NCBI GenBank assembly: GCA_964440465.1
Contig: CAYTSI010000005.1
Span: forward strand, 151-64,150
Length of the DNA: 64,000 nucleotides
Direction: 5' to 3'
From: an uncultured Spirochaetales bacterium
GTDB taxonomy: Bacteria; Spirochaetota; Spirochaetia; SPDA01; CAZSGZ01
Below the pieces are notes generated by a model. The model was not told the origin of the DNA. It did not search any database and saw only the letters and a program-made list of their open reading frames with translations. The stretch's first letter is position 1; each line of letters opens with the position of its first letter. This document shows, piece by piece, positions 5,816 to 23,192 of this stretch. Made by a program: the position numbers and the translations under genes.

Positions 5816-5840
5816 GTTAAGGAAAATAGGAAGTGATGGA

Positions 5841-6929: not shown

Positions 6930-6941
6930 GAGGATAGACAG

Positions 6942-8276: not shown

Positions 8277-8325
8277 AATCTCCCTGTTGCCCCGCCGAGT
8301 CCTCTTTGGTATGATGGGACGGGAG

Positions 8326-8517
8326 ATGGACAATACTCCAAAGAAAGCTCCGAACTGCCTGAAATGCCGTTTTTTTTCGGTTTCCTGGGACAGACGTTAC
8401 CCCCGGGCATGTTCCGTATTTGGTATTAAATCGAAGCAGCTTCCCAGCATGGAGGTATACCGGGCCACCGGGCGGCATTGTCCAATGTTTCAAAAATCCG
8501 AAAAAATAAAGGACTAA
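8326..8517 (+). CDS. Small Cys-rich hypothetical protein
   Basis: The product reads MDNTPKKAPNCLKCRFFSVSWDRRYPRACSVFGIKSKQLPSMEVYRATGRHCPMF, giving a CxxC...C...C pattern. The start was chosen at ATG 8326, after GGGACGGGAG. No family was recognised. Confidence 0.35.
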   Translation: MDNTPKKAPNCLKCRFFSVSWDRRYPRACSVFGIKSKQLPSMEVYRATGRHCPMFQKSEKIKD

Positions 8518-8533
8518 ACTGAAGGAATACATC

Positions 8534-9682
8534 ATGAATAGAGAACGAAAAAAAAGGCGGACACTAAAAAAGAGCGGGCCGATGATGTCCCGCCTGTACG
8601 GAGACACCGGCGTTAACGTTTCCGCGTTAGGTTTCGGCGGGATGCGGTTTGAGAAACCGGACGATATCGAGCATTCCGCCGAGACGGTGTTCCACGCCTT
8701 CGAGCGGGGGATTACCTATTTCGATACGGCGCCGGGGTATTTCGACGGTAAGTCGGAGGAGGCCGTCGGTACGGCGGTAAACGAGATGAAGAAAACCGGC
8801 AGGCCTTTTTATATATCCACGAAATCAAACAAGGCGGACGGTGCCGTGGTCCGGAAAGAGCTGGAAGAAAGCCTGAAGCGGCTGAATCTCGACTGTATCG
8901 ATTTTTATAACTGCTGGTACGTACTGACATTAGAGGATTGGGAAAAACGGAAAAACGGCGGGGCAGTGGAAGCAATTCTAAAGGCGCGGGACGAGGGGCT
9001 TGTCCGCTTTCCGGTATTTTCCACCCACCTTCCGGGAGACGCGGTACGTACGGTCATTGAAGAGGGATATTTCCGCGGCGTTACCCTCGGCTATTCGGCC
9101 ATCAATTTTCCCTACCGGGAAGAGGGGATACGGGCAGCCGGAGAGAACAATCTCGGTGTTGTCGTTATGAACCCCTTAGGGGGAGGAACAATTGTAAACA
9201 ATGCCGATGCCTTTCAATTTATCAAACGGGACAGCAAACAGACCGTTTTAGAGGCGGCCCTTCATTTTCTCTGGGCCCACGATGAAATTACGGTCGCGTT
9301 AGTAGGATGCAGGAACAAGTCCGATGTGGACGATGCCGCTGCCGCCGCGGCATCGTACGTACCCTATTCGGACGAAGATATCTCTAAAATAAAGAAGAAC
9401 ATTACCCGGGACTTCAACCAGCTGTGTACAAGCTGTACCTACTGTGATGTTTGTCCCGAAGACATCCCTGTCTGGAAGTTTGTGGAAACTGCAAACCATG
9501 TTATTTTAGGCTCTTCCGCGTCACTGTCCGGACGACTGAAATACTACTGGGGGGCTGATCCGACGGCCATGGAGCGGTGTATCCGGTGCGGGCAGTGTGA
9601 AAGTGCCTGCACCCAGCATATACCGATTATGGAACGGTTTGAGATGCTGAAAACAGCATTGACGGAGGAACCTACAAAGTAA
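8534..9682 (+). CDS. Aldo/keto reductase with C-terminal 4Fe-4S ferredoxin-like tail
   Basis: The AKR barrel motifs are LGFGGMRF, ITYFDTAPGY and GVVVMNPLGGG. The C-terminal cysteine clusters are CTSCTYCDVCP and CIRCGQCESAC. An alternative start exists at 8582. Confidence 0.8.
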   Translation: MNRERKKRRTLKKSGPMMSRLYGDTGVNVSALGFGGMRFEKPDDIEHSAETVFHAFERGITYFDTAPGYFDGKSEEAVGTAVNEMKKTGRPFYISTKSNKADGAVVRKELEESLKRLNLDCIDFYNCWYVLTLEDWEKRKNGGAVEAILKARDEGLVRFPVFSTHLPGDAVRTVIEEGYFRGVTLGYSAINFPYREEGIRAAGENNLGVVVMNPLGGGTIVNNADAFQFIKRDSKQTVLEAALHFLWAHDEITVALVGCRNKSDVDDAAAAAASYVPYSDEDISKIKKNITRDFNQLCTSCTYCDVCPEDIPVWKFVETANHVILGSSASLSGRLKYYWGADPTAMERCIRCGQCESACTQHIPIMERFEMLKTALTEEPTK

Positions 9683-9813
9683 CAGCGCCGAAAAATGGCT
9701 GTAGCTTTGTCTGAGTACAGATGATGTCCCCGCGTGCAGCCGAAAAGAGGATATATCCCGGAAGATTTGATAAATCACTTGCAGATTAGCCGAAATTGTA
9801 TCAAAATAGAGGT

Positions 9814-10953
9814 ATGGAAGAAAGAAAAGTATTAATAAAAGATTTCGAGAAAAAAATCCAATCCAATGAGGAAAAAATCAGGCTGCTGCTGATACAAACG
9901 GGTGAATACCTCTTTGCAAAGGCGAAAAAAGATACCCGGTCCGCGGCGCAGGATGATTATGATGCCGCGAAACGGCAGCTGGATTCCCTGGAACAATACA
10001 AGGACAGCAAAAAACGGATTCTTGCCATTCTCGAACGGCTTTCTGAGATTAAAGAAGAGATGACCAATTCCGGCGGGCAGATTGAGATCATAGAACGGGC
10101 GAATCTGCCGGTATATGAAGTCATAGGAGAAAAGGCCTACGAACACCTGCGTCATGATCCGTCCCGGTATAATCAGTACAGCGATGTATTTGTGGATGTC
10201 AATAATCAGATAGAGGACATTGAAAATATAGAAAATGACATTGAAGCAATACACGCGCAGAAAAAGCAGCGTAAATTCTTTGAAAAAATTGCGGACACCG
10301 GTCAGGTAACCTATTTAAAGGGGATCAAGATGGTCCGGGCAAAAACAATGCCCCGGCTGTACCGGGAGGCCGGGCAAAAGCTCACGGAAACCAATTTTTT
10401 GGAAACAACAGGAAACGAAGAAATCGTAAGCGCCGCCGGACCGTACCTGCAGAACAAAGAAAAATTGAAGGAACTGCATACCCGGATGGAGCATCTCTCG
10501 GAAGAGGAAAAGAGTTTAGAGTCGGAACTGATCAATTTAGGAGTGGACAAACGGGCAGACCGGCGAACGGACGAACTCGACCGGAATATTGCCGCTGCCC
10601 AGGAGAAATACACGGAAAAGCTTCTCGCGATTGCCCGGAAGGTGCGGGAAAACACCCCGGAGGCAATTGCCTCACTGTCGGACTATAAAGAATTTCTCAA
10701 AGAAATCGCGAAATGCGAAAAGCAGAATGATCAATACCGGGAAAATATTACAAAACTCAACGCGGCAATTGAGGCGGATAATTGTGCCCGCCAGCTTGAA
10801 AGAATGAATGAAAGTATCGGCGACCGCGAGCGGCGTATTCGGGAGTACGAACAGGAAATAGAAGACCTGCAAAAACGGATAGCGGAAACGGAGAAAGAGA
10901 AAAAGCGCTACGAGGAAATCAGGGGTCCTAAGGAACTGACACTTCAGTCGTAA
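9814..10953 (+). CDS. Coiled-coil protein, unknown function
   Basis: The ~380-aa product is highly charged (E/K/R/Q-rich) with heptad-like composition throughout. The start was trimmed to ATG 9814, after an AGAGG RBS. The gene has its own terminator downstream. Confidence 0.55.
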   Translation: MEERKVLIKDFEKKIQSNEEKIRLLLIQTGEYLFAKAKKDTRSAAQDDYDAAKRQLDSLEQYKDSKKRILAILERLSEIKEEMTNSGGQIEIIERANLPVYEVIGEKAYEHLRHDPSRYNQYSDVFVDVNNQIEDIENIENDIEAIHAQKKQRKFFEKIADTGQVTYLKGIKMVRAKTMPRLYREAGQKLTETNFLETTGNEEIVSAAGPYLQNKEKLKELHTRMEHLSEEEKSLESELINLGVDKRADRRTDELDRNIAAAQEKYTEKLLAIARKVRENTPEAIASLSDYKEFLKEIAKCEKQNDQYRENITKLNAAIEADNCARQLERMNESIGDRERRIREYEQEIEDLQKRIAETEKEKKRYEEIRGPKELTLQS

Positions 10954-10990
10954 TGTCTGCCCGCGGCATCCCATAACAACCTTCCACTGA

Positions 10991-11029
10991 CAGCCCGTTC
11001 GGATAACTCCGGCCGGGCTGCTCTTTTTT
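10991..11029 (+). terminator. Rho-independent terminator candidate
   Basis: The stem CAGCCCG (10991-10997) pairs with CGGGCTG (11014-11020) and is followed by CTCTTTTTTG. Confidence 0.6.
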
Positions 11030-11046
11030 GTAAGCTGTGATAGGAT

Positions 11047-12174
11047 ATGTTCCGTATGAACCGGTTTACGATGTGCGCGGCAGCCGACTTTCACCTCGGC
11101 ATGAGGTTCTCTTCCTACCCTTCTGTGCAAAAGGAGCTGATACGGGCGAGGTTTTCCGCGCTCCGGCGGGTGGTGGACCGGGCAAATGCCGAACAATGCG
11201 CTCTTCTTGTGATAGCGGGAGATTTGTTTGATCGTATCAACATCCCGGTAAAAGAAGCGGAGGAAGTGATAGAAATTCTCGGCGGATTTCAGGGTGATTG
11301 CATTGCGGTTTTACCGGGTAACCACGATTATTTCAGCGGTGCAAAGAGCGGTGTCTGGAAAACCGTTACGGAGAATGGACCGGATAACCTCCTGCTGCTG
11401 TCGGAGAAGAAAAAATACTACCTCAATGATTTCCATTTGCCGGTTGTTTTATATGCCGGCCCATGCAGTTCTCAGCACGGACGTGAAAACGCGGTATCGT
11501 GGATCGGCCCGGCGGACCGAAAGGACAGAGAATTGTTTCATATAGGGGTAGCCCACGGCAGCATTGAGGGGATTTCCCCCGACGTAACCAAGCAGTATTT
11601 CCCGATGAACAGGAAGCAGCTGGAGTCCGCCGGTCTCGATTTGTGGATTATCGGGCACACCCATATACCCTTCCCGGAGCGGGAGGAAACGGTATCGCCT
11701 TTTATTATACCCGGCACACCCGAACCGGACGGTTTTGATTCCGGCGGGGACGGAGCTGCTTGGATTATTTCGGTAAATGATAACAAGGCGGTACACAAGA
11801 AGCGGTTTACTGCCGGCTCATACCGTTTTACGCGGCAGATAAAGGAAATACACTCCGCCGGGGACATTGAGGAGGCGGTCCGTGAAATGAGCGGAACGGC
11901 CGGTCCTTCCGTTCTCCTGCAGCTGAAACTGCGGGGCACTCTTGTGAAGGGCGATTTTCCCCTTTTAGGTCCGGCAATGGAAGAATTGGCACAGCGGTTT
12001 TTTTATACGGATATTGATACGGAAAGCGTGAAAACAAAGCTGACCCCCGGAGAAATCGGCAATGAATTCCGGGAAGGGACCTTTCCCTATATTCTTCTTT
12101 CCCGTCTCTCCGAGTACGGCGATACCGAGGCGCTCGAGCGGGCTTACAGGATCCTAGAGGAGATGAGGAAATGA
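11047..12174 (+). CDS. Metallophosphoesterase, SbcD/Mre11-like nuclease subunit (YhaO-like)
   Basis: The calcineurin-like phosphoesterase motifs are AADFHLG, IAGDLFD, LPGNHD and GHTH. The gene overlaps the downstream ATPase gene by 4 nt. Confidence 0.75.
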   Translation: MFRMNRFTMCAAADFHLGMRFSSYPSVQKELIRARFSALRRVVDRANAEQCALLVIAGDLFDRINIPVKEAEEVIEILGGFQGDCIAVLPGNHDYFSGAKSGVWKTVTENGPDNLLLLSEKKKYYLNDFHLPVVLYAGPCSSQHGRENAVSWIGPADRKDRELFHIGVAHGSIEGISPDVTKQYFPMNRKQLESAGLDLWIIGHTHIPFPEREETVSPFIIPGTPEPDGFDSGGDGAAWIISVNDNKAVHKKRFTAGSYRFTRQIKEIHSAGDIEEAVREMSGTAGPSVLLQLKLRGTLVKGDFPLLGPAMEELAQRFFYTDIDTESVKTKLTPGEIGNEFREGTFPYILLSRLSEYGDTEALERAYRILEEMRK

Positions 12175-14651
12175 TCATCCGGGACCTGCACATTCATACC
12201 TTCGGGGACTTTCAGGATGTCCGGCTGCAGTTTGCAGACGGGTGTAATATTGTCCTTGGTGAAAATGAAGCGGGTAAGTCAACGGTTTTCAATGTAATCG
12301 ATCATCTGCTGTTTACTCCCGTCAAGCTGACGAAGCGTGAAATGGAAAAAAGCTTGAATCGATGGTTTCCCGTTGGAGGCGGGGATACGTTGAGCGCGGA
12401 ATTATCTGCCGAACTCGGGGACAGAGCTGTTCGGTACTTCAAGTGCTGGGGCGGGAATCCGGAAGGAACAATTCGATTTTCACCGGGAGGGACCTATTCG
12501 GGCGATGATGCCCTCGCTGCGGAAACGGAAAAATTGTGGGGATACTCTCCGGAGACGGTGCGGCAGGTTTGCCTGCTGCGGCAGAGTACCCTCGCGGATA
12601 CGCTGCCTTCCTACCAGAATTCGAAGGAGGTATTGCAGTCTCTTACCGACATCCTGCAAAATTCTTTAATAGAAGGCGGCGGTATTTCCACCTCCGGTTT
12701 TATTGAAACTCTCCGGGACCGGTACAGCTTGTTTTTTTCAAGATGGGACAGAGACCGGAACTATCCGGAAAAAAACAGAGGGATTGAAAATCCATGGTCG
12801 GTAAACGTGGGTACGGTTTTGAAATGGTGGTATGAAATGAAGCGGGCCGAGTTAGAGGTCCGGCGGGTAGAGCAGCTGGAAGACTCAATATGTTTACTGC
12901 AGAGCAGCCAAAAAGAAAAAAAGAAGGAAACGGCAGCTCTCGAGTCGTTTCTTTCTGCCTTTGAGACAGTCTACAACACTGCCGGAGACAGAAAAAGCCT
13001 GGAATTGGAACTGCGGGAAATTATCGGTACGATGGAGCGGATAAAGAAAGACAGTCAATCCTGGGGACGGGGGAGGGATGGTCTTGAACAGGCGCTCCGG
13101 GAGCGGAAAGAAGGGAACGAAGAACTTGGAAAGCTCCGCGGGCGGATCGAAAGCAGGGATGAAGTAACGGCGAAACGGAAACGGTTCGAAAAATATCGTC
13201 GGCTGCTGGAGGTGAAAACAAAACTCGACGCCCTGGAGGCAAAGCTCAGAGAACAGCCGGCAATACCGGAAAAGGATTTGCAGGCACTCCGTGAATCAAG
13301 GTTGGCAATTCGGGAAAGTGAGGTGAAACTGCAGTCCGGAACACTCTTTGCACAGCTGACCGCGAAGAAAAATATCAGTTTTTCCTATACTCCCGGATTG
13401 GGCACTGAAAAGCGGCGTGACCTTATGGCAGGGAATTCGCTTGAAATAACGGCGGAAGGGAAAATTCGGCTGAGCCACGAAGACTGGGAGCTGGATGTTT
13501 ATTCGGGAAACGAAGATTACGAAACCGTCAAAAAGGAGCTGGAGGCAGGCAAAAAAGAGTTTAACGCTCTCTGTGAGAAGTACGGTGTTGTTTCCGTCGA
13601 GGAAGGAGAAGCACAGCGGAAGGTTTATACTGATCTGGAAGGGGAAACGGCACGGGCGCGGAAACAATTTTCCGAGGAACGCGGAGAGGACTCTTTTGAA
13701 GCCCTGAAGAAGGAAGTCGAAAGTTTTGGGGCCCTTCCTGAGGAAACCGACAGTACCGAGCTGGGAAGAGAATACGGTTCTCTCAATGAACGGCTTGCCG
13801 CGCTTGAAAAAACAATACAGGAACATCGGGAACGGTTGTCGTATTTGGAAGAGACATATGGGACGGAGGAAAAGCTTCTGGACATGCTCGCGGACCTCCG
13901 CGGCCGGCAGCGGGACTTGGAGAAACAAGTGGCTGCTCTTCCGGAAATTCCTGACCCCTTCGAAACGGCGGAAGAATTTCTTGAGGCATACAGGGAAAAA
14001 CAAAGAAAAAGGGAGACGCTCCGTCAGGAAATATTTGAGTTAGATAAGGCGGCCGCCCTTGCGGTAAAAGACCTCCCGGACATCTCCCTCGAGGAGCTCG
14101 AAGCGGACGCTGAAGCCGCGCGGCGGCGTTTTCAATCCGCGCTTTCGGAGGGGGAGACAATCGGCCGGATTCTCGAGACAGCGCTGCGGATCCAAAAAGA
14201 AATTCAGGAGAACCCCTATACCGCCTTTATGGAGGCGGCGGAAGCAAACCTTAAAAAAATGACCGGGCAGAGGCTGCAGTATAAAAGCAGATCAGGCGGG
14301 GGGGACGGTCAGGCAGCGGCCCCTTTTCACGGTGATGTTAGAAACAGCCGGGGAGAAATTCTGGCGTACGGACAGCTTTCAGGCGGAACGAAAGACGCGG
14401 TTTCTCTAGCCGTCCGGCTGGCAATGGCGGAGTATTATCTGAAAAATAAAGCAGGGTTTCTCCTCTTTGATGATCCCCTAGTGGAAATGGACCCGCGGCG
14501 CCAGAAGGCCGCCGCCGAACTGCTTTCCGAAACCGCCCGGCGCTACCAGTCGATAATCTTTACCTGTCATCCCCACATGCGCGATTTATTCCCGAATGCC
14601 AATGTAATTGAGCTGCATCGGGACGGGGAACGGAGGCGTGTTAAATTTTAA
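12171..14651 (+). CDS. SbcC/Rad50-like AAA ATPase with long central coiled coil (YhaN-like)
   Basis: Walker A (GENEAGKST) is at the N-terminus. The central ~500 aa are coiled-coil. The C-terminus carries an ABC signature (LSGGTKD) and Walker B (LLFDDPLVEMD). Confidence 0.8.
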   Translation: MIIRDLHIHTFGDFQDVRLQFADGCNIVLGENEAGKSTVFNVIDHLLFTPVKLTKREMEKSLNRWFPVGGGDTLSAELSAELGDRAVRYFKCWGGNPEGTIRFSPGGTYSGDDALAAETEKLWGYSPETVRQVCLLRQSTLADTLPSYQNSKEVLQSLTDILQNSLIEGGGISTSGFIETLRDRYSLFFSRWDRDRNYPEKNRGIENPWSVNVGTVLKWWYEMKRAELEVRRVEQLEDSICLLQSSQKEKKKETAALESFLSAFETVYNTAGDRKSLELELREIIGTMERIKKDSQSWGRGRDGLEQALRERKEGNEELGKLRGRIESRDEVTAKRKRFEKYRRLLEVKTKLDALEAKLREQPAIPEKDLQALRESRLAIRESEVKLQSGTLFAQLTAKKNISFSYTPGLGTEKRRDLMAGNSLEITAEGKIRLSHEDWELDVYSGNEDYETVKKELEAGKKEFNALCEKYGVVSVEEGEAQRKVYTDLEGETARARKQFSEERGEDSFEALKKEVESFGALPEETDSTELGREYGSLNERLAALEKTIQEHRERLSYLEETYGTEEKLLDMLADLRGRQRDLEKQVAALPEIPDPFETAEEFLEAYREKQRKRETLRQEIFELDKAAALAVKDLPDISLEELEADAEAARRRFQSALSEGETIGRILETALRIQKEIQENPYTAFMEAAEANLKKMTGQRLQYKSRSGGGDGQAAAPFHGDVRNSRGEILAYGQLSGGTKDAVSLAVRLAMAEYYLKNKAGFLLFDDPLVEMDPRRQKAAAELLSETARRYQSIIFTCHPHMRDLFPNANVIELHRDGERRRVKF

Positions 14652-14667
14652 GGCACCCGCGAAAGAA

Positions 14668-15645
14668 TTATGAATCGAAGCTGTATTCCCCGCGCCATGA
14701 AACAATGTATTCCCAGACATTTCCCCGCGGCGGCCGTACCGATCCTCCTGTGCCGGGGTCGTACGTCCACGTTCCCGTAATCCCCTTTTCCGCGGCGGCG
14801 GCTTCGAAATGATACATTGCAATTCCCGTATCGATCCGCTGTAGGTCAATGTGCTTCCTGAAAAGCCCGTAAGCTCTGTCCCTTTGCAGAAAAAAATGCA
14901 CCAGGTTCTCCGCTTTCCCGCTGCCCCGGAAGGTGATTATCAGCCGCCATGGCTGCTTGTTTGATGCCGAGGGAGCAAGTCGCACGCATTCGAGAATGAT
15001 CTTTGTTTTTTCGGAAACTTCACTGGGTTGCAGAGGTTTGAGGGGGACAGAGCTGCAGGTAACGAAAAACAGTTTTTCCCACGGTTTCCGGCGTTTCGAT
15101 CCCGCGGCAAATCTGATGAAGCGTGCAGCCGGCCGCCTACGTTCCGCCGGATATCCCACAGGTGTTATTGCAGGGATAATTTCGTTGTCTGGAAGATTGA
15201 GGTATTCTGAAAGTTTCCCGCGCTGAAAAGTTCCCCCGAGCCAGCAGGTCCCGAGGCCGAGATTCGTCAACTGCAGGATAATATGTTCAAAGGTGTAGCC
15301 GAGGTCCGTCATTTTCTGAGGGACAGAGCTGCCTTTTGAGGAATTTTCTATGTTTCGCTTCCGATTTGCAGTGTCCGCCGCGACTGATTTTTCTGTAACT
15401 GTAACAATGCCCGCGGCAAAAAGGCGTGCCCCTCGTATAAAACCGTAAGTACCAAGTGAGCTCCGCCACTCCTCCGGCATACCGGATAGGTCAATCAGCG
15501 TAAACCGGATGCGCGATCCGAACGGCGGGACAGCACCGGGATGTACGATGAGTTTTTCAATTTTATTTACCAGTTCCGGTTCGCAATGCCGCCCAGAATA
15601 AGAGCGGATCGACCTTCTCCGAAGTATTGTATCGTGTATCGTCAT
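14668..15645 (-). CDS. Nitroreductase-family protein
   Basis: The N-terminal TILRRRSIRSYSG motif and the later APSASNKQPW motif are typical of nitroreductase folds. The start was trimmed to the ATG at 15645 (MTIHDTILRRRS). Confidence 0.7.
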   Translation of the reverse strand: MTIHDTILRRRSIRSYSGRHCEPELVNKIEKLIVHPGAVPPFGSRIRFTLIDLSGMPEEWRSSLGTYGFIRGARLFAAGIVTVTEKSVAADTANRKRNIENSSKGSSVPQKMTDLGYTFEHIILQLTNLGLGTCWLGGTFQRGKLSEYLNLPDNEIIPAITPVGYPAERRRPAARFIRFAAGSKRRKPWEKLFFVTCSSVPLKPLQPSEVSEKTKIILECVRLAPSASNKQPWRLIITFRGSGKAENLVHFFLQRDRAYGLFRKHIDLQRIDTGIAMYHFEAAAAEKGITGTWTYDPGTGGSVRPPRGNVWEYIVSWRGEYSFDS

Positions 15646-15836
15646 CGTCTCTTGTCGAGGGTAATTATATTCACAGGTAGGAGAATACTCTAATTGGGAG
15701 TCTACTTCTATGGGCGACCTCAAGTTTTCCCTTACTGGTCTGGAGATGTAAAGCGTTTAGGAAAATCAGCTACTTACTCTTAATGCTCCGTCCCTCATCA
15801 ACAGCACCGGTTATCGCTCACCGGTATTCGGCATTA

Positions 15837-16343
15837 TCAGCGTAACTTCATCCAAACCCGCCGCAGGAAATCATTAGGCGGCCGCTCTAATATGTCCAGC
15901 TGTCCCTTATAGATCAAACTCATGCCGCTGTATTTATAGTCTGTCGCGTATTGGACCATTTTGGCGCGAACTGGGTTATTGGCTATATAAACAAATGTGG
16001 CAAGATATTGCAGGAAACTGTGAATTATTTTGCTTTTAAACCGCTCGTTCCATACATGGCCGGTTAGCCCAAATGTTTTATTATACTGCATCGCGAAAAC
16101 GCTTAAAACCCATTGCATAATGGCCGATAAGCTCTCATTATTCAGCGGTTTTATGATGAAATGGTAATGGTTTCCCATTATACAGAAGTTTTTGATAGTG
16201 AAGCGGTATTTTTTTTTTGCCCTTCTGATGACTTCCATAAACATTTCTTGTATTTCCGGTGTTTTGAATATTACTTCTTTGCGGTTCACTCTGGAAACTA
16301 CGTGATAACTTGCCCCATACTGTAATTGCCTTGGTTTTCTCAT
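15837..16343 (-). CDS. IS200/IS605-type Y1 (HUH) transposase-like protein, RAYT-like
   Basis: The 168-aa product has an HUH motif (GNHYHFII) and a C-terminal tyrosine region (YIANNPVRAKMV...YKYSG). The gene stands alone, with no tnpB nearby, and local GC content is lower than in the neighbouring genes. Confidence 0.8.
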   Translation of the reverse strand: MRKPRQLQYGASYHVVSRVNRKEVIFKTPEIQEMFMEVIRRAKKKYRFTIKNFCIMGNHYHFIIKPLNNESLSAIMQWVLSVFAMQYNKTFGLTGHVWNERFKSKIIHSFLQYLATFVYIANNPVRAKMVQYATDYKYSGMSLIYKGQLDILERPPNDFLRRVWMKLR

Positions 16344-16448
16344 TCTTTACCCCCTCGAATAGTCGGTATTTTTTTTTGCCTATACTTAATAAGAAGGGGT
16401 AAATAGGATTGCTGATTTTAAAATTCGGTCATTTTTTTTATTTTTTTT

Positions 16449-16458
16449 GCTCTGTCCC
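16449..16458 (-). repeat. Intergenic copy of the over-represented 10-mer GGGACAGAGC
   Basis: GCTCTGTCCC is read on the + strand, 106 bp upstream of the RAYT start codon. Confidence 0.95.
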
Positions 16459-16464
16459 CATCTT

Positions 16465-17661
16465 TTAGCTTTTTAACCGCTTGAGAAGTTCCCGGGCGAC
16501 AGCTGTCTCAACTTTATCCTCTGTCCCTAGCCCGCATACAGTACGGACCATGTGTTCATGTCCGTTTGCGGCCAGTTCTTCAGCGAACTGCTTGTCCCCT
16601 GGGAAAAGAATGCCGTTTTCGTCGGATCCGCGGAATGCAAACCCGGCGGCGGCTGCCTCGGCAATTGCGCTATAGGGAAGCCCGTGGGTTTCGGCTAAAA
16701 GCATTGCTCCGACCAGCCTATCGTCTTTGGCAAGTTTCCGTTGAAGGTCCCGGCCGACCCGGAAAATGGTATCACCCAATGCTTTATTTCGGAACCTGTT
16801 TAGAAGGTCGCCAATGTGTTCTCGGAGCGCGTCCAGAGAGAGATCGGCCGGGTACGCGGCGTGAAGGGCTTCTCCTGACTGTTCCATTGCTTTTTGTACT
16901 TTATCCTTAATTTCCGGAAGCTCAAGGGGTTCCCAGATGTAGGTAAACCCGGGTTCCTTACGATATCCGATATACGCCGCCGCCGCGTGACCCATATTAT
17001 GAATGAACAGTTTCCTGTCTACGTAGGCGGTTATATTTTCCACTGCTTTTATCTCGGGGAAATCCGGCACTTCTCGGACAAATCCGTGTTTATCAAGGAT
17101 AAGCGTATTGTATTCTTCCGAGAATACCCACAGTGGATCTTCGTTTTTGTCTTCCTCCCGCATAATCGGTACCATTTTCCCAATACTCGTTTCAACCAGG
17201 CCCACTGTTTTCTGAATGGGGAAGCCGGGAGGTAGATATTTCTGCAGTTCCCTTCTAAAAAAAGCAGCTCCGTCCCTCATATTTTCAGCAATAATGATGT
17301 CGATTTTTGCCGCTTCCGTCCGCATTTTTATCCCTTCGGCAATAACGGGGATTATATGCGGTAAGACCCCCTTCCCAACAGACGTGGCAATGTACGCCGC
17401 TTTGGAAATTTCTTCCGCTACTGCAGCTCTGTCCCTGCCGTCGACGGCTCGGACACCGGTAACGAAGACCTCTTCATCTTCCTGATTGTTCCGTTTAATA
17501 ATGACACGATAGGAGTTCCTGCTGTTCAACTCCCGTATCAGCGTTTCATCAATATCGACAAAGACAACCTCATAACCGTTGCCTGCAAACACCTTCCCGA
17601 TAAATGATCTGCCGATATTTCCGGCACCGAACTGCACTAGTTTTTTCTGTTTTTCCTGCAT
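16465..17661 (-). CDS. mtlD: Mannitol-1-phosphate 5-dehydrogenase family protein
   Basis: The product is collinear with E. coli MtlD as I recall it. Shared segments include FGAGNIGRSFIGK, IIIAENM, VDRKLFIHNMGHAAAAYIG and RFRN...RVGRDLQRKL..DDRL. Confidence 0.75.
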   Translation of the reverse strand: MQEKQKKLVQFGAGNIGRSFIGKVFAGNGYEVVFVDIDETLIRELNSRNSYRVIIKRNNQEDEEVFVTGVRAVDGRDRAAVAEEISKAAYIATSVGKGVLPHIIPVIAEGIKMRTEAAKIDIIIAENMRDGAAFFRRELQKYLPPGFPIQKTVGLVETSIGKMVPIMREEDKNEDPLWVFSEEYNTLILDKHGFVREVPDFPEIKAVENITAYVDRKLFIHNMGHAAAAYIGYRKEPGFTYIWEPLELPEIKDKVQKAMEQSGEALHAAYPADLSLDALREHIGDLLNRFRNKALGDTIFRVGRDLQRKLAKDDRLVGAMLLAETHGLPYSAIAEAAAAGFAFRGSDENGILFPGDKQFAEELAANGHEHMVRTVCGLGTEDKVETAVARELLKRLKS

Positions 17662-17738
17662 ACCCTATTATAAAGTGTTCGTGTACTCCGATACAAGCCG
17701 AGCGGGAGAGCCTGTCCTTGCCTCCGAAGGCCTTCAGT

Positions 17739-17748
17739 GCTCTGTCCC
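17739..17748 (-). repeat. Intergenic copy of the over-represented 10-mer GGGACAGAGC
   Basis: GCTCTGTCCC is read on the + strand, in the mtlD-like/pfkB divergent intergenic region. Confidence 0.95.
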
Positions 17749-17749
17749 C

Positions 17750-17774
17750 GGAATTGCCGGAATTGCGGAATTGA
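17750..17774. repeat. Three tandem copies of GGAATTGC/GGAATTGA (candidate operator)
   Basis: The sequence is GGAATTGC C GGAATTGC GGAATTGA, read directly. It lies 20-60 nt upstream of the kinase start. Confidence 0.9.
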
Positions 17775-17833
17775 ACTGTCTGCCATTGCACTAGATGATC
17801 ATATTTGAAATACTAAAGAAAAGTGAGGCTGAT

Positions 17834-18769
17834 GTGAAACCAGTAATAACTGCATATGGCGAGGCCCTGTGGGACCTTCTGCCGGAAGGCCCGGTCTTAG
17901 GCGGGGCATTGCTGAATTTTACCTACCGGGCAAAGAGCTTAGGCGCTGACGCGGAATGTATCAGCAGGCTCGGTATGGACGATTTGGGGGACAGAGCTGC
18001 CGGAAAAATGAACGACTTGGGGTTTGATATGAATTATATTCAGAGGGACAGTGCTCACTCTACCGGGACGGTCCCAGTCAGTTTTGATGAACAGAAAAAT
18101 CCCAGCTATGTCATTACCCCGGAGGTTGCGTTTGATTTTATTGAAGACACGGAAAATCTTGAGGCCAGAATACAACAATCCGACTGCCTCTGCTTCGGGA
18201 GCCTTATTCAGCGCGCTCCGGTTTCGCGGGAAACCCTCTACAAACTGATCGAGCAATTCGGGGGCAGGTACCTGCTTTTCGATATCAATTTACGAAAAGA
18301 CTGTTATTCCTCCAAAACGGTGCGCACGTCCCTGGAAAAATGTCATATTGCGAAGCTCAATGAGGACGAACTGCATGAGCTTAAAGAATTAATTGGAATT
18401 TCCGGGAATTCAGTCCGGAAACTGACGCAATCCTGTGTTGAAACCTACGGTTTGACCTATTGTCTCGTAACTTTAGGAGACAAGGGGCTTTTTGCCGCGG
18501 CTGATTCGGGGACAGAGGTGTATGTTCCGGGTATTGTCGTCGACCTTGTCGACCCGATTGGTGCCGGGGACGCCTGTACGGCAGGGTTTATTTTTTCTCT
18601 CCTGCAGGACAGTCCTCTCGATTACGCGTGCAAATATGCCAATGCAATCGGTGCGGCGGTCGCGGAAACTTCCGGGGCCACCGGTTTTGTATCGAAAGAG
18701 CGGATCGAAGCGGTCCTCCGCGGTGGGGACTATTCGGAGCCTCATCCAGAATTTCGGAGGAAGTACTGA
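17834..18769 (+). CDS. PfkB-family carbohydrate kinase
   Basis: The N-terminus AYGEALWDLLP is followed by the C-terminal DPIGAGDACTAGF anion-hole/ATP motif typical of ribokinase/PfkB kinases. The start is either GTG 17834 (RBS GTGAGG) or the track ATG at 17795. Confidence 0.8.
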   Translation: MKPVITAYGEALWDLLPEGPVLGGALLNFTYRAKSLGADAECISRLGMDDLGDRAAGKMNDLGFDMNYIQRDSAHSTGTVPVSFDEQKNPSYVITPEVAFDFIEDTENLEARIQQSDCLCFGSLIQRAPVSRETLYKLIEQFGGRYLLFDINLRKDCYSSKTVRTSLEKCHIAKLNEDELHELKELIGISGNSVRKLTQSCVETYGLTYCLVTLGDKGLFAAADSGTEVYVPGIVVDLVDPIGAGDACTAGFIFSLLQDSPLDYACKYANAIGAAVAETSGATGFVSKERIEAVLRGGDYSEPHPEFRRKY

Positions 18770-18822
18770 ACTTTTAGTTGATTTTTTTGCGCTTTACTAT
18801 TATTATATCTCGAAACAACTAA

Positions 18823-19008
<186 letters not shown>

Positions 19009-19046
19009 CACTTTTACGTAAGCAGTGTTAAGCTGCATTTTGTATG

Positions 19047-19090
19047 AAAGCTGCTGCCGGCCGTTGGTGCCGACGGCAGCTTTTTGTTTG
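19047..19090 (+). terminator. Rho-independent terminator after the ferredoxin gene
   Basis: A long GC-rich hairpin (AAAGCTGCTGCCGG...CCGACGGCAGCTTT) is followed by TTTTTGTTTG. Confidence 0.7.
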
Positions 19091-19120
19091 CCCGGCGAAG
19101 CCGGCAAACCTGCCGCGGTG

Positions 19121-19130
19121 GGGACAGAGC
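19121..19130 (+). repeat. Intergenic copy of the over-represented 10-mer GGGACAGAGC
   Basis: This is an exact match occupying the sequence block at 19121-19130. Confidence 0.95.
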
Positions 19131-19156
19131 ATGCCGATCGATGCCTAATTAATTCG

Positions 19157-19185
19157 TTGACAGGGGACAGAGCCGAAGGTAAACT
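19157..19185 (+). promoter_or_regulatory. Candidate sigma70 promoter (TTGACA, 17-nt spacer, TAAACT) with the 10-mer motif in its spacer
   Basis: TTGACA lies at 19157-19162. The 17-nt spacer GGGGACAGAGCCGAAGG contains the motif at 19164-19173. TAAACT lies at 19180-19185, followed by the RBS AAGGAG and the GTG start at 19204. Confidence 0.4.
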
Positions 19186-19203
19186 TTTTTTAAGGAGTGT
19201 GGT

Positions 19204-19875
19204 GTGAAAAAAATACTAAGTGCTCTCGTGTTGTTGTTCTTTTGCCGCGTTTTTCCTGTTTTTTCCTTCAATCCGGAGGAACTGAACACAATTACCTTTC
19301 ATAATAATACAGGTTACGATATTTACTATATTTTCCTCTCCCCGGGAGACAGCGACTTTTGGGGGCCGGAGGTGCTCGGGGCCGACCGCGTCCTTGGCGC
19401 CGGGGAAAGCCTGGGGTTTTATATTCATTACCCCGATTTTTCGAACACTTTCGATATTATGGCCATCGATGACGACGGGTATACCTTTATTCTGTGGGAC
19501 TATGAAGTCTCCGACGATGCTCCGGCGGAACTGACTTTCGATTTTGAAGACCTTTTGGACGATCCTCCGGACCTGGAGTTTATTACACTCAATGTAACAA
19601 ATGAAACGGTGCCGGTTTATCTTCTTTTCGTATCTCCCGAAGATTCAAACATGTGGGGTGTCGATTTGCTGGATGAATATACCATTTTAGAATCGGAAAA
19701 ATCCTTCAGTGTTCTCGTTCCGGTGGGTGGGACTACAACAACCTACAACGTTCTGGCGGTGGACGAGGACATGGATGAATACATCTTTGATATTCACCTC
19801 AACACCCGCTATGCCGATTCCGAAGGGACCATGTACGAGGCCGTTACCCTGGATGATTTGGTTACCGGCTACTGA
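19204..19875 (+). CDS. Secreted protein of unknown function with an internal duplication
   Basis: The N-terminus is a signal-like hydrophobic segment (MKKILSALVLLFFCRVFPVFS). Two ~100-aa repeats share the pattern Y-[IL]-[FL]-[LV]-SP-[GE]-DS-x-[FM]-WG-x-[ED]-[VL]-L and a later 'AIDDDG/AVDEDM' segment. Confidence 0.55.
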   Translation: MKKILSALVLLFFCRVFPVFSFNPEELNTITFHNNTGYDIYYIFLSPGDSDFWGPEVLGADRVLGAGESLGFYIHYPDFSNTFDIMAIDDDGYTFILWDYEVSDDAPAELTFDFEDLLDDPPDLEFITLNVTNETVPVYLLFVSPEDSNMWGVDLLDEYTILESEKSFSVLVPVGGTTTTYNVLAVDEDMDEYIFDIHLNTRYADSEGTMYEAVTLDDLVTGY

Positions 19876-21944
19876 ACCGTAAGTTCTTTCAGCGGCTGCG
19901 GTTTCGATATTTCGTACCCCTGAGCGTAGTCGACACCGATTTCCGTTAGTTTTTCGAGGATCGTACTATTTCGAACAAATTCGGCAATTGTTTCTATTCC
20001 CATGACATGACCTAACGTGTTAATAGCTTCAACCATAGCTGAGTTGACGCTGTTTTCATCCATATCTTTTACAAAGGAACCGTCTATTTTGAGGTAATCG
20101 ACAGGCATATTTTTCAGGTAATTGAAAGAGGAAAAACCGCTCCCGAAATCGTCCAATGAAAATGTACATCCCATTTTTTTCAGCTCGTGAATAAACTGGC
20201 TTGCCGTGGTCATATTGCTGATGGTGACGGTTTCGGTTATTTCAAAGCAAAAGTTTTCCGGCGCCGCGCCGCTGCTGTGAAGCTGGTTCTGTATAAACTC
20301 GAGAAAATGCTCATCCGCCATACTTTCGGCGGAAAGATTGATGGAAAATACCTTTTTCCCGGCGCCGCCGTTCAACTTGTTAAACATCCCGACCGCTGTT
20401 TTCACGACCCAGCGGTCCACGAGGGGCATTAAATTGTAGCGTTCCGCGGCGGGAAGAAAATCGATCGGGGGGATTATCCCTCCGTTTTCGTCTATCATCC
20501 GGATGAGGACCTCCATTTTTTCCGACGTGCTGGCAACCGCGTGGGGCGAAATGGGCATAATCGTCTGATAGTAGAGCTCAAACCTGTCTTCTTCCAAAGC
20601 CTTGGTTAATCGGGTTACCCACTGCATTTCTCCGCGGCGCTGTTTAAATTGTTTGTCCGATGTTTTATAGACCCGGATCCGCCTTCCCCCCTCGTCTTTT
20701 GCGATGTAGCAGGCATCGTCGGCGGCGGCTAAAACCGAATGGATGTCTTCGCTTGTATCATCGATTACAACGAGGCCGATACTCGAGTGGATGTTGAACG
20801 CGTTCTGGCCCCATACCAGGCGCCGTTCCTTCAGCCGGTTCTGCAGCCGCTCGGCGATAATGTGGGCGGTTTCCTGGTCGGTGTTGTTCAGGACAATACC
20901 GAACTCGTCGCCGCCGAGCCGCGCGCAGATGTCACTGCTTCGAAATACGTTTTTGACAATTGCCGTAGTCTCGAGCAGCAGCTCATCTCCCGCGGCGTGG
21001 CCGATGGTGTCGTTTATCAGCTTAAACTGGTCGAGGTCGAGATAGATGAGGGCGTGCTGTGCCCCTTCTTTTTTCGCGGAATTGATAAGGCCCTTCAATG
21101 CCTGTGAAAAAGCGTCCCGATTTAAAAGGCCGGTAAGAGCGTCGTGGCTTGCCTGATAGGAAATTTTGTTCGACATCTCCCTCAGTTCCGAGATGTCCCG
21201 TACTGCTATTACCTGTCCCTCGATTCCCGATTGGCTGTCCCGGATACTGGCTACCGTACCTTCGACGGGGATCGTTTCGCCGTTTTTGTTCTTGATTACC
21301 GCTTCTTTGAAGAAAAATGTTCCCTGTTGAGGGTTTTTAACGTCGATATCGGGAAGCATAATCTCTTGCTTGGTATTTTCGTCATATATCTTTATCACCG
21401 ATGCAATATGCTTTGCTTTGGCTTCGGTTTCTTCGAGTCCCGTTATCGATTCCGCAACGGGATTCATGAATTCCACGTTCCGCTGATTGTCGGTTGCAAT
21501 TATCCCGTCGGCAATGCTGTGAAGAATAGCTGAAAACCGCCGTTCCTGCCGTTTCAGGGTTTTATCCACCTGGTATTTATAGATTGCTATATCAATGGTA
21601 GTGTAGAGTTCTTTTTCTTTAAAGGGTTTGAGAATGTAGCCGAAAGGTTCCGCTTCTTTCGCCCGGTTTAAGGTCTTTTCATCGGCATAGGCCGTGAGAA
21701 AAATGACGGGTATCTGGTTCCGGTCTTTAACGATTTTTGCCGCGTCGATACCGTCGATATCACCTCCGCCAAGCATAATGTCCATAAGAATGATATCCGG
21801 GTTAAGTTCCGCCGCTTTATCTATAGCTTCCTGTCCGGTAGTGCAGAGCCCGACAACATCGTAGTCGAATTTTTCCAAACGCCGCTGCAGGTCGAGGGAA
21901 ATTATTTTTTCATCTTCAACAATAAGAATTCGTTCTTTACTCAT
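19869..21944 (-). CDS. Response-regulator receiver / PAS / GGDEF / EAL c-di-GMP signalling protein
   Basis: The receiver domain reads ILIVEDE...DIILMDIML. PAS-like and GGDEF regions follow (RLGGDEFG), then an EAL domain (the EITE variant FCFEITET, plus DDFGSG and LKIDGSF). Confidence 0.9.
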   Translation of the reverse strand: MSKERILIVEDEKIISLDLQRRLEKFDYDVVGLCTTGQEAIDKAAELNPDIILMDIMLGGGDIDGIDAAKIVKDRNQIPVIFLTAYADEKTLNRAKEAEPFGYILKPFKEKELYTTIDIAIYKYQVDKTLKRQERRFSAILHSIADGIIATDNQRNVEFMNPVAESITGLEETEAKAKHIASVIKIYDENTKQEIMLPDIDVKNPQQGTFFFKEAVIKNKNGETIPVEGTVASIRDSQSGIEGQVIAVRDISELREMSNKISYQASHDALTGLLNRDAFSQALKGLINSAKKEGAQHALIYLDLDQFKLINDTIGHAAGDELLLETTAIVKNVFRSSDICARLGGDEFGIVLNNTDQETAHIIAERLQNRLKERRLVWGQNAFNIHSSIGLVVIDDTSEDIHSVLAAADDACYIAKDEGGRRIRVYKTSDKQFKQRRGEMQWVTRLTKALEEDRFELYYQTIMPISPHAVASTSEKMEVLIRMIDENGGIIPPIDFLPAAERYNLMPLVDRWVVKTAVGMFNKLNGGAGKKVFSINLSAESMADEHFLEFIQNQLHSSGAAPENFCFEITETVTISNMTTASQFIHELKKMGCTFSLDDFGSGFSSFNYLKNMPVDYLKIDGSFVKDMDENSVNSAMVEAINTLGHVMGIETIAEFVRNSTILEKLTEIGVDYAQGYEISKPQPLKELTVQ

Positions 21945-22031
21945 AGATGCTTATCTTTTCCTTATTACGTTGTATAATATTACCATGATTATTGCAACAT
22001 CAATCTTAATAAATATATACTATTATATAAT

Positions 22032-23165
22032 ATGCAGTTTGTAAATAAAATAAATGTTATGGAGTTGCAAAAACGGGAGCGTCCACGGGAGGAAGATCTG
22101 CGGGGGGCCTTTTTCAGGGACACTACCGCTATTATTCACTCCTATCCTTTCCGAAGGCTGCGGCACAAAACACAGGTATTTTTTTCACCGAAAAACGATC
22201 ATATCTGTACGCGCATCGAACATGTCATGCATGTCGCGACTGTGGCGACCACCATCTGCAAAGCCTTGAAACTCGATACCGACCTGGCTTGGGCAATCAG
22301 CATGGGCCACGACTTAGGGCATACTCCCTTCGGGCATTCCGGCGAAAAAATTATCGAGAAGATGTTTGCCGACCGGGGAGGGTTCGCCCACGAACTCTAC
22401 TCCCTTCGGGTGGTGGACAAACTCCACAAATACGGAAAGGGAATGAACCTGACCTATGCCGTGCGGGACGGAATTGTTACCCACTGCGGAGAAAAGTTTG
22501 AGCAGTTTATTTCCCCCGACCACAGGGTAAAAGAACTTTCTTCCATTACCGACAGGGAGTCCTATCCGGCAACGTGGGAAGGGGCTGTTGTCCGGATGTC
22601 CGACAAAATTGCTTACTTAGGAAGGGACATGGAGGATGCCGTACGGCTGAATGTTATCACTCCGAAAGAGCTTCCCGATACTGTAGTACGGGTCTTAGGA
22701 ACGCGGAACAGCGATATTATTGACACCCTCGTACGTGACTGTGTAGCAACTTCGACAGCTGAGGGACAGATCGGGTTCAGCCCGCGGGTCTACTCCGCTC
22801 TTATCGATTTAAAAGATTTCAACTATGAGCATATTTATACAAGCAGGGCCCTCTCCCGCTATACAGCCTTCTTTGAAAGGATCCTTACGACATTGTTTTT
22901 GTATTTGGAGCGAATTTTTAAAGCTTACCGCTTTACATTTGCCGATTACCAGCGGGAGCATACAATTCTTGCCATCCGCTTTGGAGATTACCTGTCTAAA
23001 ATGCAGTCCTTCTACACCGCCGAGAGAGCGGGGGACGATCAGATAGTAATTGATTATGTAGCAGGAATGACCGACGATTACGCGATAGACTGTATAGAAG
23101 AGATTATGGTCCCAAAAGAGTTTGAACATTACGACAGAGAGCTGTACACAAAGTTGAATTTATGA
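22032..23165 (+). CDS. dGTPase-like HD-domain triphosphohydrolase
   Basis: The motifs FRRLRHKTQVF, RIEHVMHV and GHDLGHTPFGH match the Dgt/HD phosphohydrolase pattern. Confidence 0.8.
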   Translation: MQFVNKINVMELQKRERPREEDLRGAFFRDTTAIIHSYPFRRLRHKTQVFFSPKNDHICTRIEHVMHVATVATTICKALKLDTDLAWAISMGHDLGHTPFGHSGEKIIEKMFADRGGFAHELYSLRVVDKLHKYGKGMNLTYAVRDGIVTHCGEKFEQFISPDHRVKELSSITDRESYPATWEGAVVRMSDKIAYLGRDMEDAVRLNVITPKELPDTVVRVLGTRNSDIIDTLVRDCVATSTAEGQIGFSPRVYSALIDLKDFNYEHIYTSRALSRYTAFFERILTTLFLYLERIFKAYRFTFADYQREHTILAIRFGDYLSKMQSFYTAERAGDDQIVIDYVAGMTDDYAIDCIEEIMVPKEFEHYDRELYTKLNL

Positions 23166-23192
23166 TTTAATGCAGATATTAGAGGAAAATGA

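Follow-up and report, generated by a model that had tools for sequence, protein, structure and literature searches.

A stretch of 64,000 nucleotides from an uncultured Spirochaetales bacterium (contig CAYTSI010000005.1 of assembly GCA_964440465.1; the whole stretch is called the window below) carries a gene for a RAYT, a tyrosine transposase of the kind associated with repetitive extragenic palindromes (REPs), amid a clump of copies of a short sequence word. The gene lies at 15837..16343 on the minus strand and encodes a HUH/Y1 nuclease of 168 amino acids. The word, GGGACAGAGC or GCTCTGTCCC on the opposite strand, is the commonest 10-mer of the window and forms the core of a motif with 12 informative positions, R-GGGAC-R-GAG-S-H, which was derived from a logo of about 700 copies from many genomes. 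We consider it likely that the 12-mer is the cognate recognition word of a RAYT clade that is almost confined to the Spirochaetota, and that a local bias depending on the RAYT keeps the word exact.

A scan for relatives of the RAYT with one genome per species gave 322 matches, and several genomes contained multiple diverged copies. The best 80 of these 322 relatives, with up to 10 kb on each side, were taken as the locus set (1.09 Mb). All 80 loci belong to the Spirochaetota, except for two contigs of Margulisiibacteriota and one unclassified contig. Although the loci span GC contents of 33-68%, most of them have a form of the word as their most frequent 10-mer, namely GGGACGGAGG, GGGACGGAGC, GGGACAGAGC, GGGACAGAGG or GGGACAGTGC. 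The 1.09 Mb contain the 9-mer GGGACGGAG (G-form, G at position 6) 461 times and GGGACAGAG (A-form, A at position 6) 213 times, while any other GGGACNNNN occurs at most 31 times. When the 80 loci were pooled, the density of GGGACRGAG amounted to 3.17/kb over the 500 nt that directly precede the RAYT gene, where 93% of the copies are located on the strand of the gene, to 1.4-1.7/kb in the first 1 kb downstream, to roughly 0.4-1.2/kb (mean about 0.85) at a distance of 1-2.5 kb and to 0.2-0.3/kb at 6-10 kb. A copy on the same strand is present within 400 nt upstream of the gene in 63 of 71 loci and a downstream copy within 300 nt in merely 20 of 75 loci. The RAYT coding sequences themselves hold a single copy in 38 kb.

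With the first 300 nt left out, DNA near the gene was richer in words than far DNA for 38 of 48 loci (p=2e-7); counted by genome, this holds for 35 of 42 (p=1e-6). After removal of the eight richest loci, the densities were 0.83/kb near and 0.19/kb far from the gene. Moreover, the density declines smoothly and symmetrically, both for predicted coding DNA (1.77, 0.97, 0.70, 0.45 and 0.23/kb) and for non-coding DNA (3.70, 2.58, 1.67, 1.12 and 0.43/kb). A first-pass annotation of the window had linked the word to the RAYT gene by its position in this one stretch and had proposed to relate word density to the distance from Y1/RAYT genes. This relation, established for the 80 loci and for RAYT-free controls, favours the link: the word is indeed tied to the gene and is no accident of a single window. 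The idea that it is a REP-like element mobilised by the RAYT found no support, as described below.

The cloud of words was also followed through loci with and without the RAYT. Matched controls were anchored on homologs of the mannitol-dehydrogenase gene that neighbours the RAYT gene:
Window, equivalent 11 kb: RAYT present, reference locus, about 1.6 words/kb.
L164: RAYT present (80% identical, at the same site), syntenic, 12 words in 17 kb (0.7/kb).
L172/L173: RAYT absent, gene order as in the window, 2 words in about 10 kb (~0.2/kb).
L174: RAYT absent, 0 words in 6.1 kb.
L165: RAYT absent, from the same mat, gene order as in the window, 1 word in 21 kb (0.05/kb).
L165-L171: seven RAYT-free mannitol-dehydrogenase loci pooled, 0.028/kb, which is the chance level.

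Thus, comparing loci with and without the RAYT, as the first-pass annotation had suggested, separates the syntenic RAYT-positive loci (0.7-1.6/kb) from their RAYT-less counterparts. RAYT-positive and RAYT-negative haplotypes both occur in the same mat. Furthermore, two of the seven RAYT-free loci belong to metagenome-assembled genomes (MAGs) that have word-rich RAYT loci elsewhere (L166 versus L005 and L169 versus L039). RAYT-less relatives, in which the words are missing, show the same arrangement of the genes for SbcCD, mannitol dehydrogenase, PfkB, ferredoxin and a GGDEF/EAL regulator. Because the syntenic RAYT-less and the RAYT-free loci are poor in words, it is the RAYT that the cloud accompanies, not the genes next to it. 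In addition, 80 metagenome loci of other lineages anchored on FtsH gave 0.008/kb; these relatives are only 47-66% identical and the value therefore serves as a specificity control only. In L174, the mannitol-dehydrogenase gene abuts the nitroreductase gene over a spacer of 76 nt, which is an empty site without the word. This spacer (~5260-5275) carries GGGGACCGCCGG, which shares the GGGAC half of the word alone and could be a chance occurrence or else a proto-site or remnant.

The gradient might have the opposite cause if the clumps existed for an unrelated reason and a mobile RAYT cassette inserted beside the word, so that word-rich places are preferentially sampled (size-biased sampling). 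The 93% co-orientation in the 500 nt upstream is reminiscent of the fixed left-end target of IS200/IS605 elements, and the cassette is AT-rich in comparison to its surroundings and missing from the same site in relatives. However, more than 4 kb away from RAYTs the words do not cluster with one another (observed/expected 0.84 at 0.3-2.5 kb), and the gradient is therefore not due to words that clump by themselves. The density centred on words is about half of that centred on RAYTs. Moreover, the empty site of L174 has no word, the clump is missing from the same genes in RAYT-less syntenic relatives of three lineages, and the RAYT paralogs within a genome are old and diverged, with no sign of recent transpositions. 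We regard target-site choice as very unlikely. It would be more unlikely still that the RAYT came in on a block of DNA from a donor with a word-rich genome and that the cloud is this island, an extremely improbable scenario. It would fit with the atypical GC content of the RAYT gene (37-40% versus 50-55% in the neighbourhood), and the word-free DNA at 43-57 kb of the window could be differently sourced. However, the word-bearing genes are found in the same order in word-less relatives without a RAYT, the GC content of the flanking genes is typical, and a smooth, symmetric decay in coding and non-coding DNA is not what an island would leave.

In the window itself, k-mer counting confirmed the 22 exact copies of the 10-mer at the positions given by the first-pass annotation, 13 as GGGACAGAGC on the plus strand and nine as the reverse complement. 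Ten of the 22 are located between 12418 and 19173 around the RAYT gene. The first-pass annotation is likewise correct about the smaller clumps and about the stretches devoid of copies. A scan statistic against 22 uniformly placed points gave p=0.002 for this clump when the width was set to 6756 bp, p=0.02 for 4 kb and p=0.065 for 2 kb. For the 9-mer core GGGACAGAG, 13 of the 27 copies in the window lie inside the clump (p ~3e-4). The p-values for the width of 6756 bp are optimistic because this width was picked after the data had been seen. The G-form sister word GGGACGGAG is over-represented as strongly as the A-form (19 copies, 7145-58042). However, it is evenly spread (variance/mean 0.92), with no enrichment around the local RAYT. 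The ratio of A-form to G-form is 13:3 inside versus 14:16 outside the clump (p=0.03), which makes the window clump specific for the A-form. The even spread of the G-form suggests a second source, for example a RAYT paralog beyond the window, or else a background that extends across the whole genome and is particular to it. The full 12-mer matches the window 42 times, while ~0.25 matches are expected from base composition. No information was detected in the flanks outside the 12 positions in the logo of about 700 copies, and a longer repeat around the 10-mer was ruled out because the flanks of the copies are unrelated. Most copies reside inside long open reading frames (ORFs), namely 18 of the 22 copies of GGGACAGAGC and 40 of the 46 copies of GGGACRGAG in the window.

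The protein is a RAYT by every criterion tested here, i.e. sequence, fold, the HUH and tyrosine residues, the flanking repeat and the lack of multiplication in the manner of insertion sequences (IS). As the first-pass annotation had proposed, the gene encodes a RAYT-like HUH/Y1 protein and is solitary: the ORF matches the Pfam family Y1_Tnp (2e-15), and the 64-kb window has no second gene of the Y1/RAYT type. The NCBIfam model REP_Tyr_transpos is marginally reached (80.2 bits, cut-off 80), and the score for transpos_IS200 is far below the threshold (32.7 bits, cut-off 55). The sole sequence relative in the PDB is 4ER8, the E. coli TnpA-REP protein. The AlphaFold2 model (pLDDT 91.8) is also predicted to be closest in fold to 4ER8, which is the best Foldseek match with a TM-score of 0.71 over 160 columns; for the transposases of IS608, ISDra2 and IS200, the modelled structure gives TM-scores of ~0.5 over ~125 columns. 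Across 40 aligned homologs, the H59-x-H61 motif and Y119 are invariant. In MAGs with several RAYTs, the paralogs are deeply diverged and old according to the RAYT tree, and near-identical copies were not seen. The two loci from the Candidatus Margulisiibacteriota MAG JBAZXJ01 (L064 and L072) have RAYT homologs with G-form words on contigs with a coverage of ~0.8-0.9x; either horizontal transfer of the RAYT together with the word or mis-binning accounts for them.

RAYTs are usually linked to REPs and REPINs, and the first-pass annotation had implied that this RAYT mobilises the word in a similar way. A classical REP/REPIN would be a miniature non-autonomous element, which is copied by the RAYT through single-strand cut-and-paste and lands preferentially nearby. 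Both sequence and fold identify the gene as a RAYT, genes of this kind usually have their own REPs on their flanks (PMC5581495), and the co-oriented upstream copy is present in 63 of 71 loci, as would be expected for such an element. Some intergenic copies differ by insertions or deletions (indels), and 29 of 162 direct pairs are tandem duplications of the word with its spacer. However, the repeat fails each defining feature of a REP or REPIN, namely the palindrome, the tag, the extragenic site, the inverted doublet and the origin by insertion. The DNA folding energy around 682 copies is no lower than in GC-matched controls, a conserved partner arm was not found in the logo of about 700 copies, and no GTAG tag was detected in the copies or their flanks. 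The reverse complement of the word contains CGTC or TGTC, with no adjacent stem. Adjacent pairs within 200 nt are direct in 167 cases and inverted in 53, with a spacing of usually 17-80 nt. The three differences from classical REPs that the first-pass annotation had listed (no extended palindrome, no GTAG, most copies in ORFs) are thus all correct. Moreover, 40 of 46 window copies lie in ORFs, the in-gene copies that were aligned sit in ungapped columns and some of them at conserved residues, the in-gene differences from a sister genome are point substitutions, and an insertion of 10 nt would shift the frame. For the in-gene copies that were examined, the REP/REPIN explanation is largely refuted, and as an account of the word as a whole we hold it to be very improbable. 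As a separate observation, tandem arrays of 2-4 units, sometimes perfect, consisting of the word and a spacer of 17-36 nt, were encountered in L027 (8838-8905), L031 (13-90), L047 (641-720) and L035 (5468-5510). They look like products of strand transfer between neighbouring direct copies.

The copies in and between the genes of the clump, apart from those that flank the RAYT gene itself, are the following, together with those in the remainder of the window:
12418-12427, 12745-12754 and 13860-13869 (the last a G-form), plus strand: three copies in sbcC.
14873-14882 (minus strand), 15044-15053 (plus strand) and 15320-15329 (plus strand): three copies in the nitroreductase gene.
16518..16527, minus strand: copy GGGACAGAGG at the 3' end of the mannitol-dehydrogenase gene, encoding G-T-E.
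17267..17276, minus strand: G-form copy in the mannitol-dehydrogenase gene, spelling the family-conserved R-D-G-A.
17426..17435, minus strand: copy in the mannitol-dehydrogenase gene, R-D-R-A, in ungapped alignment columns.
17739..17748, minus strand: intergenic copy between the divergent mannitol-dehydrogenase and PfkB genes, missing by an indel in the sister genome L004.
17988..17997, plus strand: copy in the PfkB kinase gene, G-D-R-A.
18509..18518, plus strand: copy GGGACAGAGG in the PfkB kinase gene, G-T-E.
19121-19130 and 19164-19173, plus strand: a direct pair, 43 nt apart, in the intergenic DNA that separates the ferredoxin gene from the ORF at 19204.
Outside the clump, A-form: 2750, 3238, 27214, 33050, 34854, 35109, 35892, 37055, 41956, 42137, 42988, 43250, 57010 and 58041.
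Outside the clump, G-form: 7145, 11747, 24207, 25224, 28330, 29696, 30335, 34575, 36026, 36382, 39296, 42411, 43125, 54152, 57914 and 58033.
The copies of GGGACRGAG outside the clump number 30 in total and span 2750..58050.

The in-gene copies that were examined were made by point substitution and codon choice. The sister genome L004 is 82-92% identical to the window and syntenic over 16 kb. At the in-gene word sites, the two genomes differ by point substitutions, and indels account for the difference at only two copies, both intergenic. When 120 homologs of the mannitol dehydrogenase were aligned, the three in-gene words fell in ungapped columns. An in-frame insertion of 12 nt, which would correspond to exactly four codons, was therefore rejected for these copies. 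Compared with the expectation from codon usage, the word is 10- to 80-fold over-represented in all six frames but one, where the excess is about 5-fold. An asymmetry of strand or transcription was considered and dismissed since codon compatibility, with a predicted ratio of 4:1, accounts for the sense bias (30:10) and for the frame bias seen in the window. Because the sense and frame biases match codon usage and all six frames are over-represented, the signal acts at the level of DNA.

The peptides that accommodate the word are Gly-Thr-Glu and x-Asp-Arg/Gly-x. Within 1 kb of a RAYT, Gly-Thr-Glu is spelled GGG-ACR-GAG in 27 of 29 cases (93%), at 5-10 kb in 24 of 48, and the expected value is 4.6%. 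For the second class of compatible peptides, the share spelled with the word drops from 60% near the RAYT to 21% far from it (p=3e-8). Furthermore, exact words near RAYTs are about 150-fold more frequent than in the control, and copies with one mismatch 1.5-fold. Of 11 copies that align, the window and L004 have nine in common, while the baseline of conservation is 47% (p=0.02). The large excess of exact over near-miss copies and the conservation in L004 indicate that the exact word is actively maintained and is no relic of a past burst.

The word and the RAYT also vary together. The variant that adjoins a RAYT gene is the one enriched around it, and the A and G variants follow clades on the RAYT tree. 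In the MAG JAFGDJ01, A-form words surround two paralogs that belong to one clade, and the third paralog, from a distant clade, has 12 G-form and no A-form copies around it. The RAYT of L164, which occupies the same site as that of the window, is accompanied by G-form words exclusively. A single column of the RAYT alignment holds 0.86 of the 0.90 bits on the variant; it corresponds to residue 99 of the window protein (in G-H-V-W-Y-D-R-F). Of the 46 G-form RAYTs, 42 have Tyr here; the 21 A-form RAYTs, which belong to four separate lineages, without exception have Gly, Asn, Ala or Cys. Residue 100 behaves much like residue 99. Arg101, two residues past residue 99, aligns with R97 of E. coli TnpA-REP in the alignment to 4ER8, and R97 contacts REP DNA base-specifically (PMC3479197). 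Since Arg101 is the counterpart of this base-reading arginine, the co-variation of residue 99 fits a direct reading of position 6.

These observations also bear on the possibility that the word is a lineage-wide signal resembling an uptake sequence, which is spread by mutation and biased uptake or recombination, and that RAYT genes merely carry or adjoin copies of it. The length of the word, its occurrence in both orientations, the copies made through codon choice, the over-used compatible tripeptides and the lineage 'dialects' resemble the DNA uptake sequences (DUS) and uptake signal sequences (USS; PMC2817400, PMC3630211), and the G-form is evenly spread in the window. However, a signal of this kind would hardly produce a gradient on the kb scale that is centred on RAYT genes. 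RAYT-free loci of two MAGs whose RAYT loci are word-rich, and RAYT-less syntenic relatives from the same habitat, carry the word no more often than chance predicts. Moreover, distinct variants surround the RAYT paralogs of one MAG, and a RAYT residue co-varies with the variant. An uptake-like signal is a very unlikely explanation.

Cis action is established for many transposases, and the following model could account for the cloud as a product of RAYT recognition. The RAYT would bind, and probably nick and rejoin, the word on single-stranded DNA, and binding or nicking would be expected on DNA carrying RGGGACRGAGSH. Residues 99-100, just before the base-reading arginine, may read position 6 of the word. 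Exact copies that newly arise by mutation would be retained through a RAYT-dependent bias, which could be a selfish drive or a selection that favours binding sites (for titration or a local nucleoprotein structure). The short range might reflect a RAYT protein that acts mostly in cis; alternatively, in a recombining population that is polymorphic for the RAYT, only tightly linked sites would stay associated with it. For the enzymatic steps, the model can draw on TnpA-REP, which cleaves and transfers strands (PMC3479197). In its strongest form, the model says that the HUH nuclease, as a domesticated enzyme, 'writes' the 12-nt word which it recognises into the chromosome around it, resident genes included, through local drive or selection on point mutations, that it thereby dictates the choice of codons and even of amino acids, and that the cloud switches its sequence with the reading residue. 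We put this forward tentatively, at somewhat less than even confidence.

Several points weigh against recognition of the word by the RAYT and its local maintenance. We know of no HUH enzyme of the RAYT family that reads a bare 12-mer, nor of a way in which a nuclease could favour the fixation of its own site by point mutation. That the RAYT recognises the word is suggested by co-localisation and co-variation in sequence data. The variant and the RAYT co-vary in a manner that is mostly confounded with host phylogeny, and the contrasts within genomes come from three MAGs (JAFGDJ01, CAZKZZ01 and CAZWAS01), which are possibly chimeric. The RAYT of L164 has Asn99 as in the window, yet its words are of the G-form only, and residue 99 is therefore no simple code. 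The case for substitutions is built on three copies in one protein and a handful of differences between the window and L004. Furthermore, the G-form is present at ~0.3/kb throughout the window, and the A-form still reaches ~0.25/kb at 20-40 kb from the RAYT. Because of this even G-form and persistent A-form, a purely local effect fails to explain the wide background of words in the window genome. The source could be additional RAYTs located beyond the window, or the effect could reach further in this genome; the RAYT-free loci of two other genomes, being at chance level, have no comparable background. Finally, the known RAYTs need a hairpin and a GTAG tag (PMC3479197).

The cassette of the window is delimited by the proximal word, which forms its 5' edge as defined against the empty site of L174, and is made up of the following parts besides the RAYT gene:
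16448..16459, minus strand: RAYT-proximal copy gGGGACAGAGCa, 106 nt upstream of the ATG and directly past the stop codon of the mannitol-dehydrogenase gene.
16426..16447, minus strand: A-rich tract with the internal short repeat AAAAAAAAT twice, between the proximal word and the conserved box.
16406..16425, minus strand: conserved box AATTTTAAAATCAGCAATCC, counterpart of the TTGAAGCAGCAG / TCAATCAACAG box of relatives.
15806..15825, minus strand: small hairpin (ACCGGT-8 nt-ACCGGT) just past the RAYT stop codon.
15785..15794, minus strand: G-form copy GGGACGGAGC, ~43 nt past the RAYT stop codon and on the strand of the gene.

The copy that had been reported 106 bp upstream of the gene start is located at 16449-16458 (10-mer) on the RAYT gene's own strand. 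The window, L004 and L164 share the order of proximal word, A-rich tract, conserved AATTTTRAAATCAGC box and ORF. In most other loci, one to four co-oriented words are followed by the TTGAAGCAGCAG or TCAATCAACAG box, whose distance to the ATG is about 35 nt, and short re-iterations of the 3' half of the word often trail the proximal words. The box AATTTTAAAATCAGCAATCC is probably a promoter or an operator. The words and the box ahead of the RAYT gene resemble iterons in front of a putative promoter. In many of the loci L023-L063, a box like TTGAAGCAGCAG / TCAATCAACAG precedes the RAYT ATG by ~30-45 nt, and after the box comes a TATA-like hexamer very near the ATG. This arrangement suggests a conserved promoter, and leaderless or short-leader transcripts would be possible. 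The box copy of the window has a longer leader with a GGGGG ribosome-binding site. The hairpin past the stop codon is not conserved in L164 or L004.

The neighbours of the RAYT gene are ordinary genes:
11047-14651: sbcD and sbcC.
14668-15723: nitroreductase.
16465-17661: enzyme of the mannitol-dehydrogenase family.
17795-18769: PfkB kinase.
About 18838-19008: ferredoxin.
19869-21944: GGDEF/EAL regulator.

A few kb from the clump, EutN/CcmL shell genes occur with genes for a DeoC aldolase and RpiB (window ~6000-8300 and L001 18500-20500), which indicates a microcompartment locus for sugar degradation. The word-free stretch 43300-57000 covers genes that are strongly conserved or very long, namely those for the anaerobic ribonucleotide reductase NrdD (44225-46351), the alpha-2-macroglobulin-like protein (47040-52820) and FtsH (53852-55759); the gap could be due to constrained proteins that tolerate the word poorly or to a different ancestry of this DNA. 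At 58033-58050, in a PBP1-type gene (56230-58476), a G-form copy and an inverted A-form copy overlap and create the near-palindrome GGGACGGAGCTCTGTCCC, which is among the few inverted pairs. A cobalamin riboswitch (RF00174, 50.7 bits) is located at 52892-53065 on the minus strand, just downstream of the 1926-amino-acid alpha-2-macroglobulin-like ORF and on the strand opposite to it. It presumably controls a minus-strand gene to its left and overlaps an ORF at 52116-53036. As this unrelated riboswitch is the sole Rfam match, a known RNA family was discarded as an explanation for the word.

RAYTs are the textbook example of a domesticated bacterial transposase, whose action on repeats and benefit for the host have yet to be resolved. 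To our knowledge, every described RAYT case involves extragenic hairpins. A bare word that is mostly located in genes and made by substitution separates RAYT recognition from RAYT transposition. It also represents a short-range, gene-centred sequence pressure that is strong enough to fix 93% of the compatible tripeptides, and it offers a natural specificity switch, with A or G at position 6 against a small residue or Tyr at position 99 of the protein. If the model is true, repeats would be propagated in a way that is distinct from both transposition and uptake-sequence drive, and a gene-centred cloud of sites would be heritable. No prior description of the word, of spirochaete RAYTs or of over-represented oligonucleotides in Treponema was found in the searchable literature, which leaves out most subscription journals. 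Thus, the word and the spirochaete RAYT system appear to be undescribed, and there is a substantial chance that the mode of propagation is new in kind. REPIN detection uses 16-mers (PMC5581495). Pipelines based on 16-mers or palindromes would miss bare-word systems, and such systems may therefore be more widespread.

Among the known systems, the IS200/IS605 elements (IS608, ISDra2) share the Y1 HUH enzyme, a short sequence in fixed orientation that abuts the 5' side of the cassette, and presence or absence at one site. Unlike in these elements, the fold and sequence of the RAYT are nearer to TnpA-REP, conserved subterminal hairpins are lacking and the paralogs are old. Moreover, IS targets comprise 4-5 nt and do not accumulate around the element. 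A further analogy, which is drawn from general knowledge, exists with iterons and their Rep proteins and with ParB/parS: in the spirochaete loci, direct repeats of a ~12-nt site with a spacing of 20-60 nt precede the RAYT gene, and the sites are concentrated around this gene of the presumed binding protein. However, the spirochaete sites number in the tens over more than 10 kb and lie inside unrelated genes, and nothing indicates a role in replication or partition.

The DUS and USS of Neisseria and Pasteurellaceae are alike in that they comprise 9-12 nt, occur in both orientations, are written through the choice of codons and amino acids, have far more exact copies than near-misses and form dialects. 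In contrast, they are distributed genome-wide and read by the uptake machinery, whereas the spirochaete word is centred on the RAYT, missing from RAYT-free loci and tracks the sequence of the RAYT. The CGTC-tagged REPs are similar insofar as the reverse complement of the word has CGTC (G-form) or TGTC (A-form), the same alternation as in the CGTC tag. CGTC repeats have been reported in Spirochaetes, and some of them are intragenic (Di Nocera et al. 2013, PMC3733652). These repeats have a stem of 8-9 bp, a loop of 4-5 nt and a CCA tail, form mostly head-to-head dimers and had no associated transposase that could be found (PMC3733652). The spirochaete word, however, is stemless and tightly tied to a RAYT, and the resemblance may be coincidental.

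Another close parallel is provided by the REP/REPIN-RAYT systems, such as E. coli TnpA-REP with its REPs and bacterial interspersed mosaic elements (BIMEs) and the Pseudomonas RAYTs with REPINs. In both cases, one small HUH/Y1 protein adopts the TnpA-REP fold and has its HUH and Tyr residues intact, the repeat flanks the gene, the repeat co-varies with the RAYT lineage, and the paralogs are diverged with no identical IS-type copies. However, the spirochaete repeat is a bare word of 12 positions, which has neither palindrome nor GTAG and resides mostly in genes. The in-gene copies that were examined came about by substitution, its close pairs are direct, and the copies form a cloud graded by distance from the RAYT gene instead of being simply scattered between genes.

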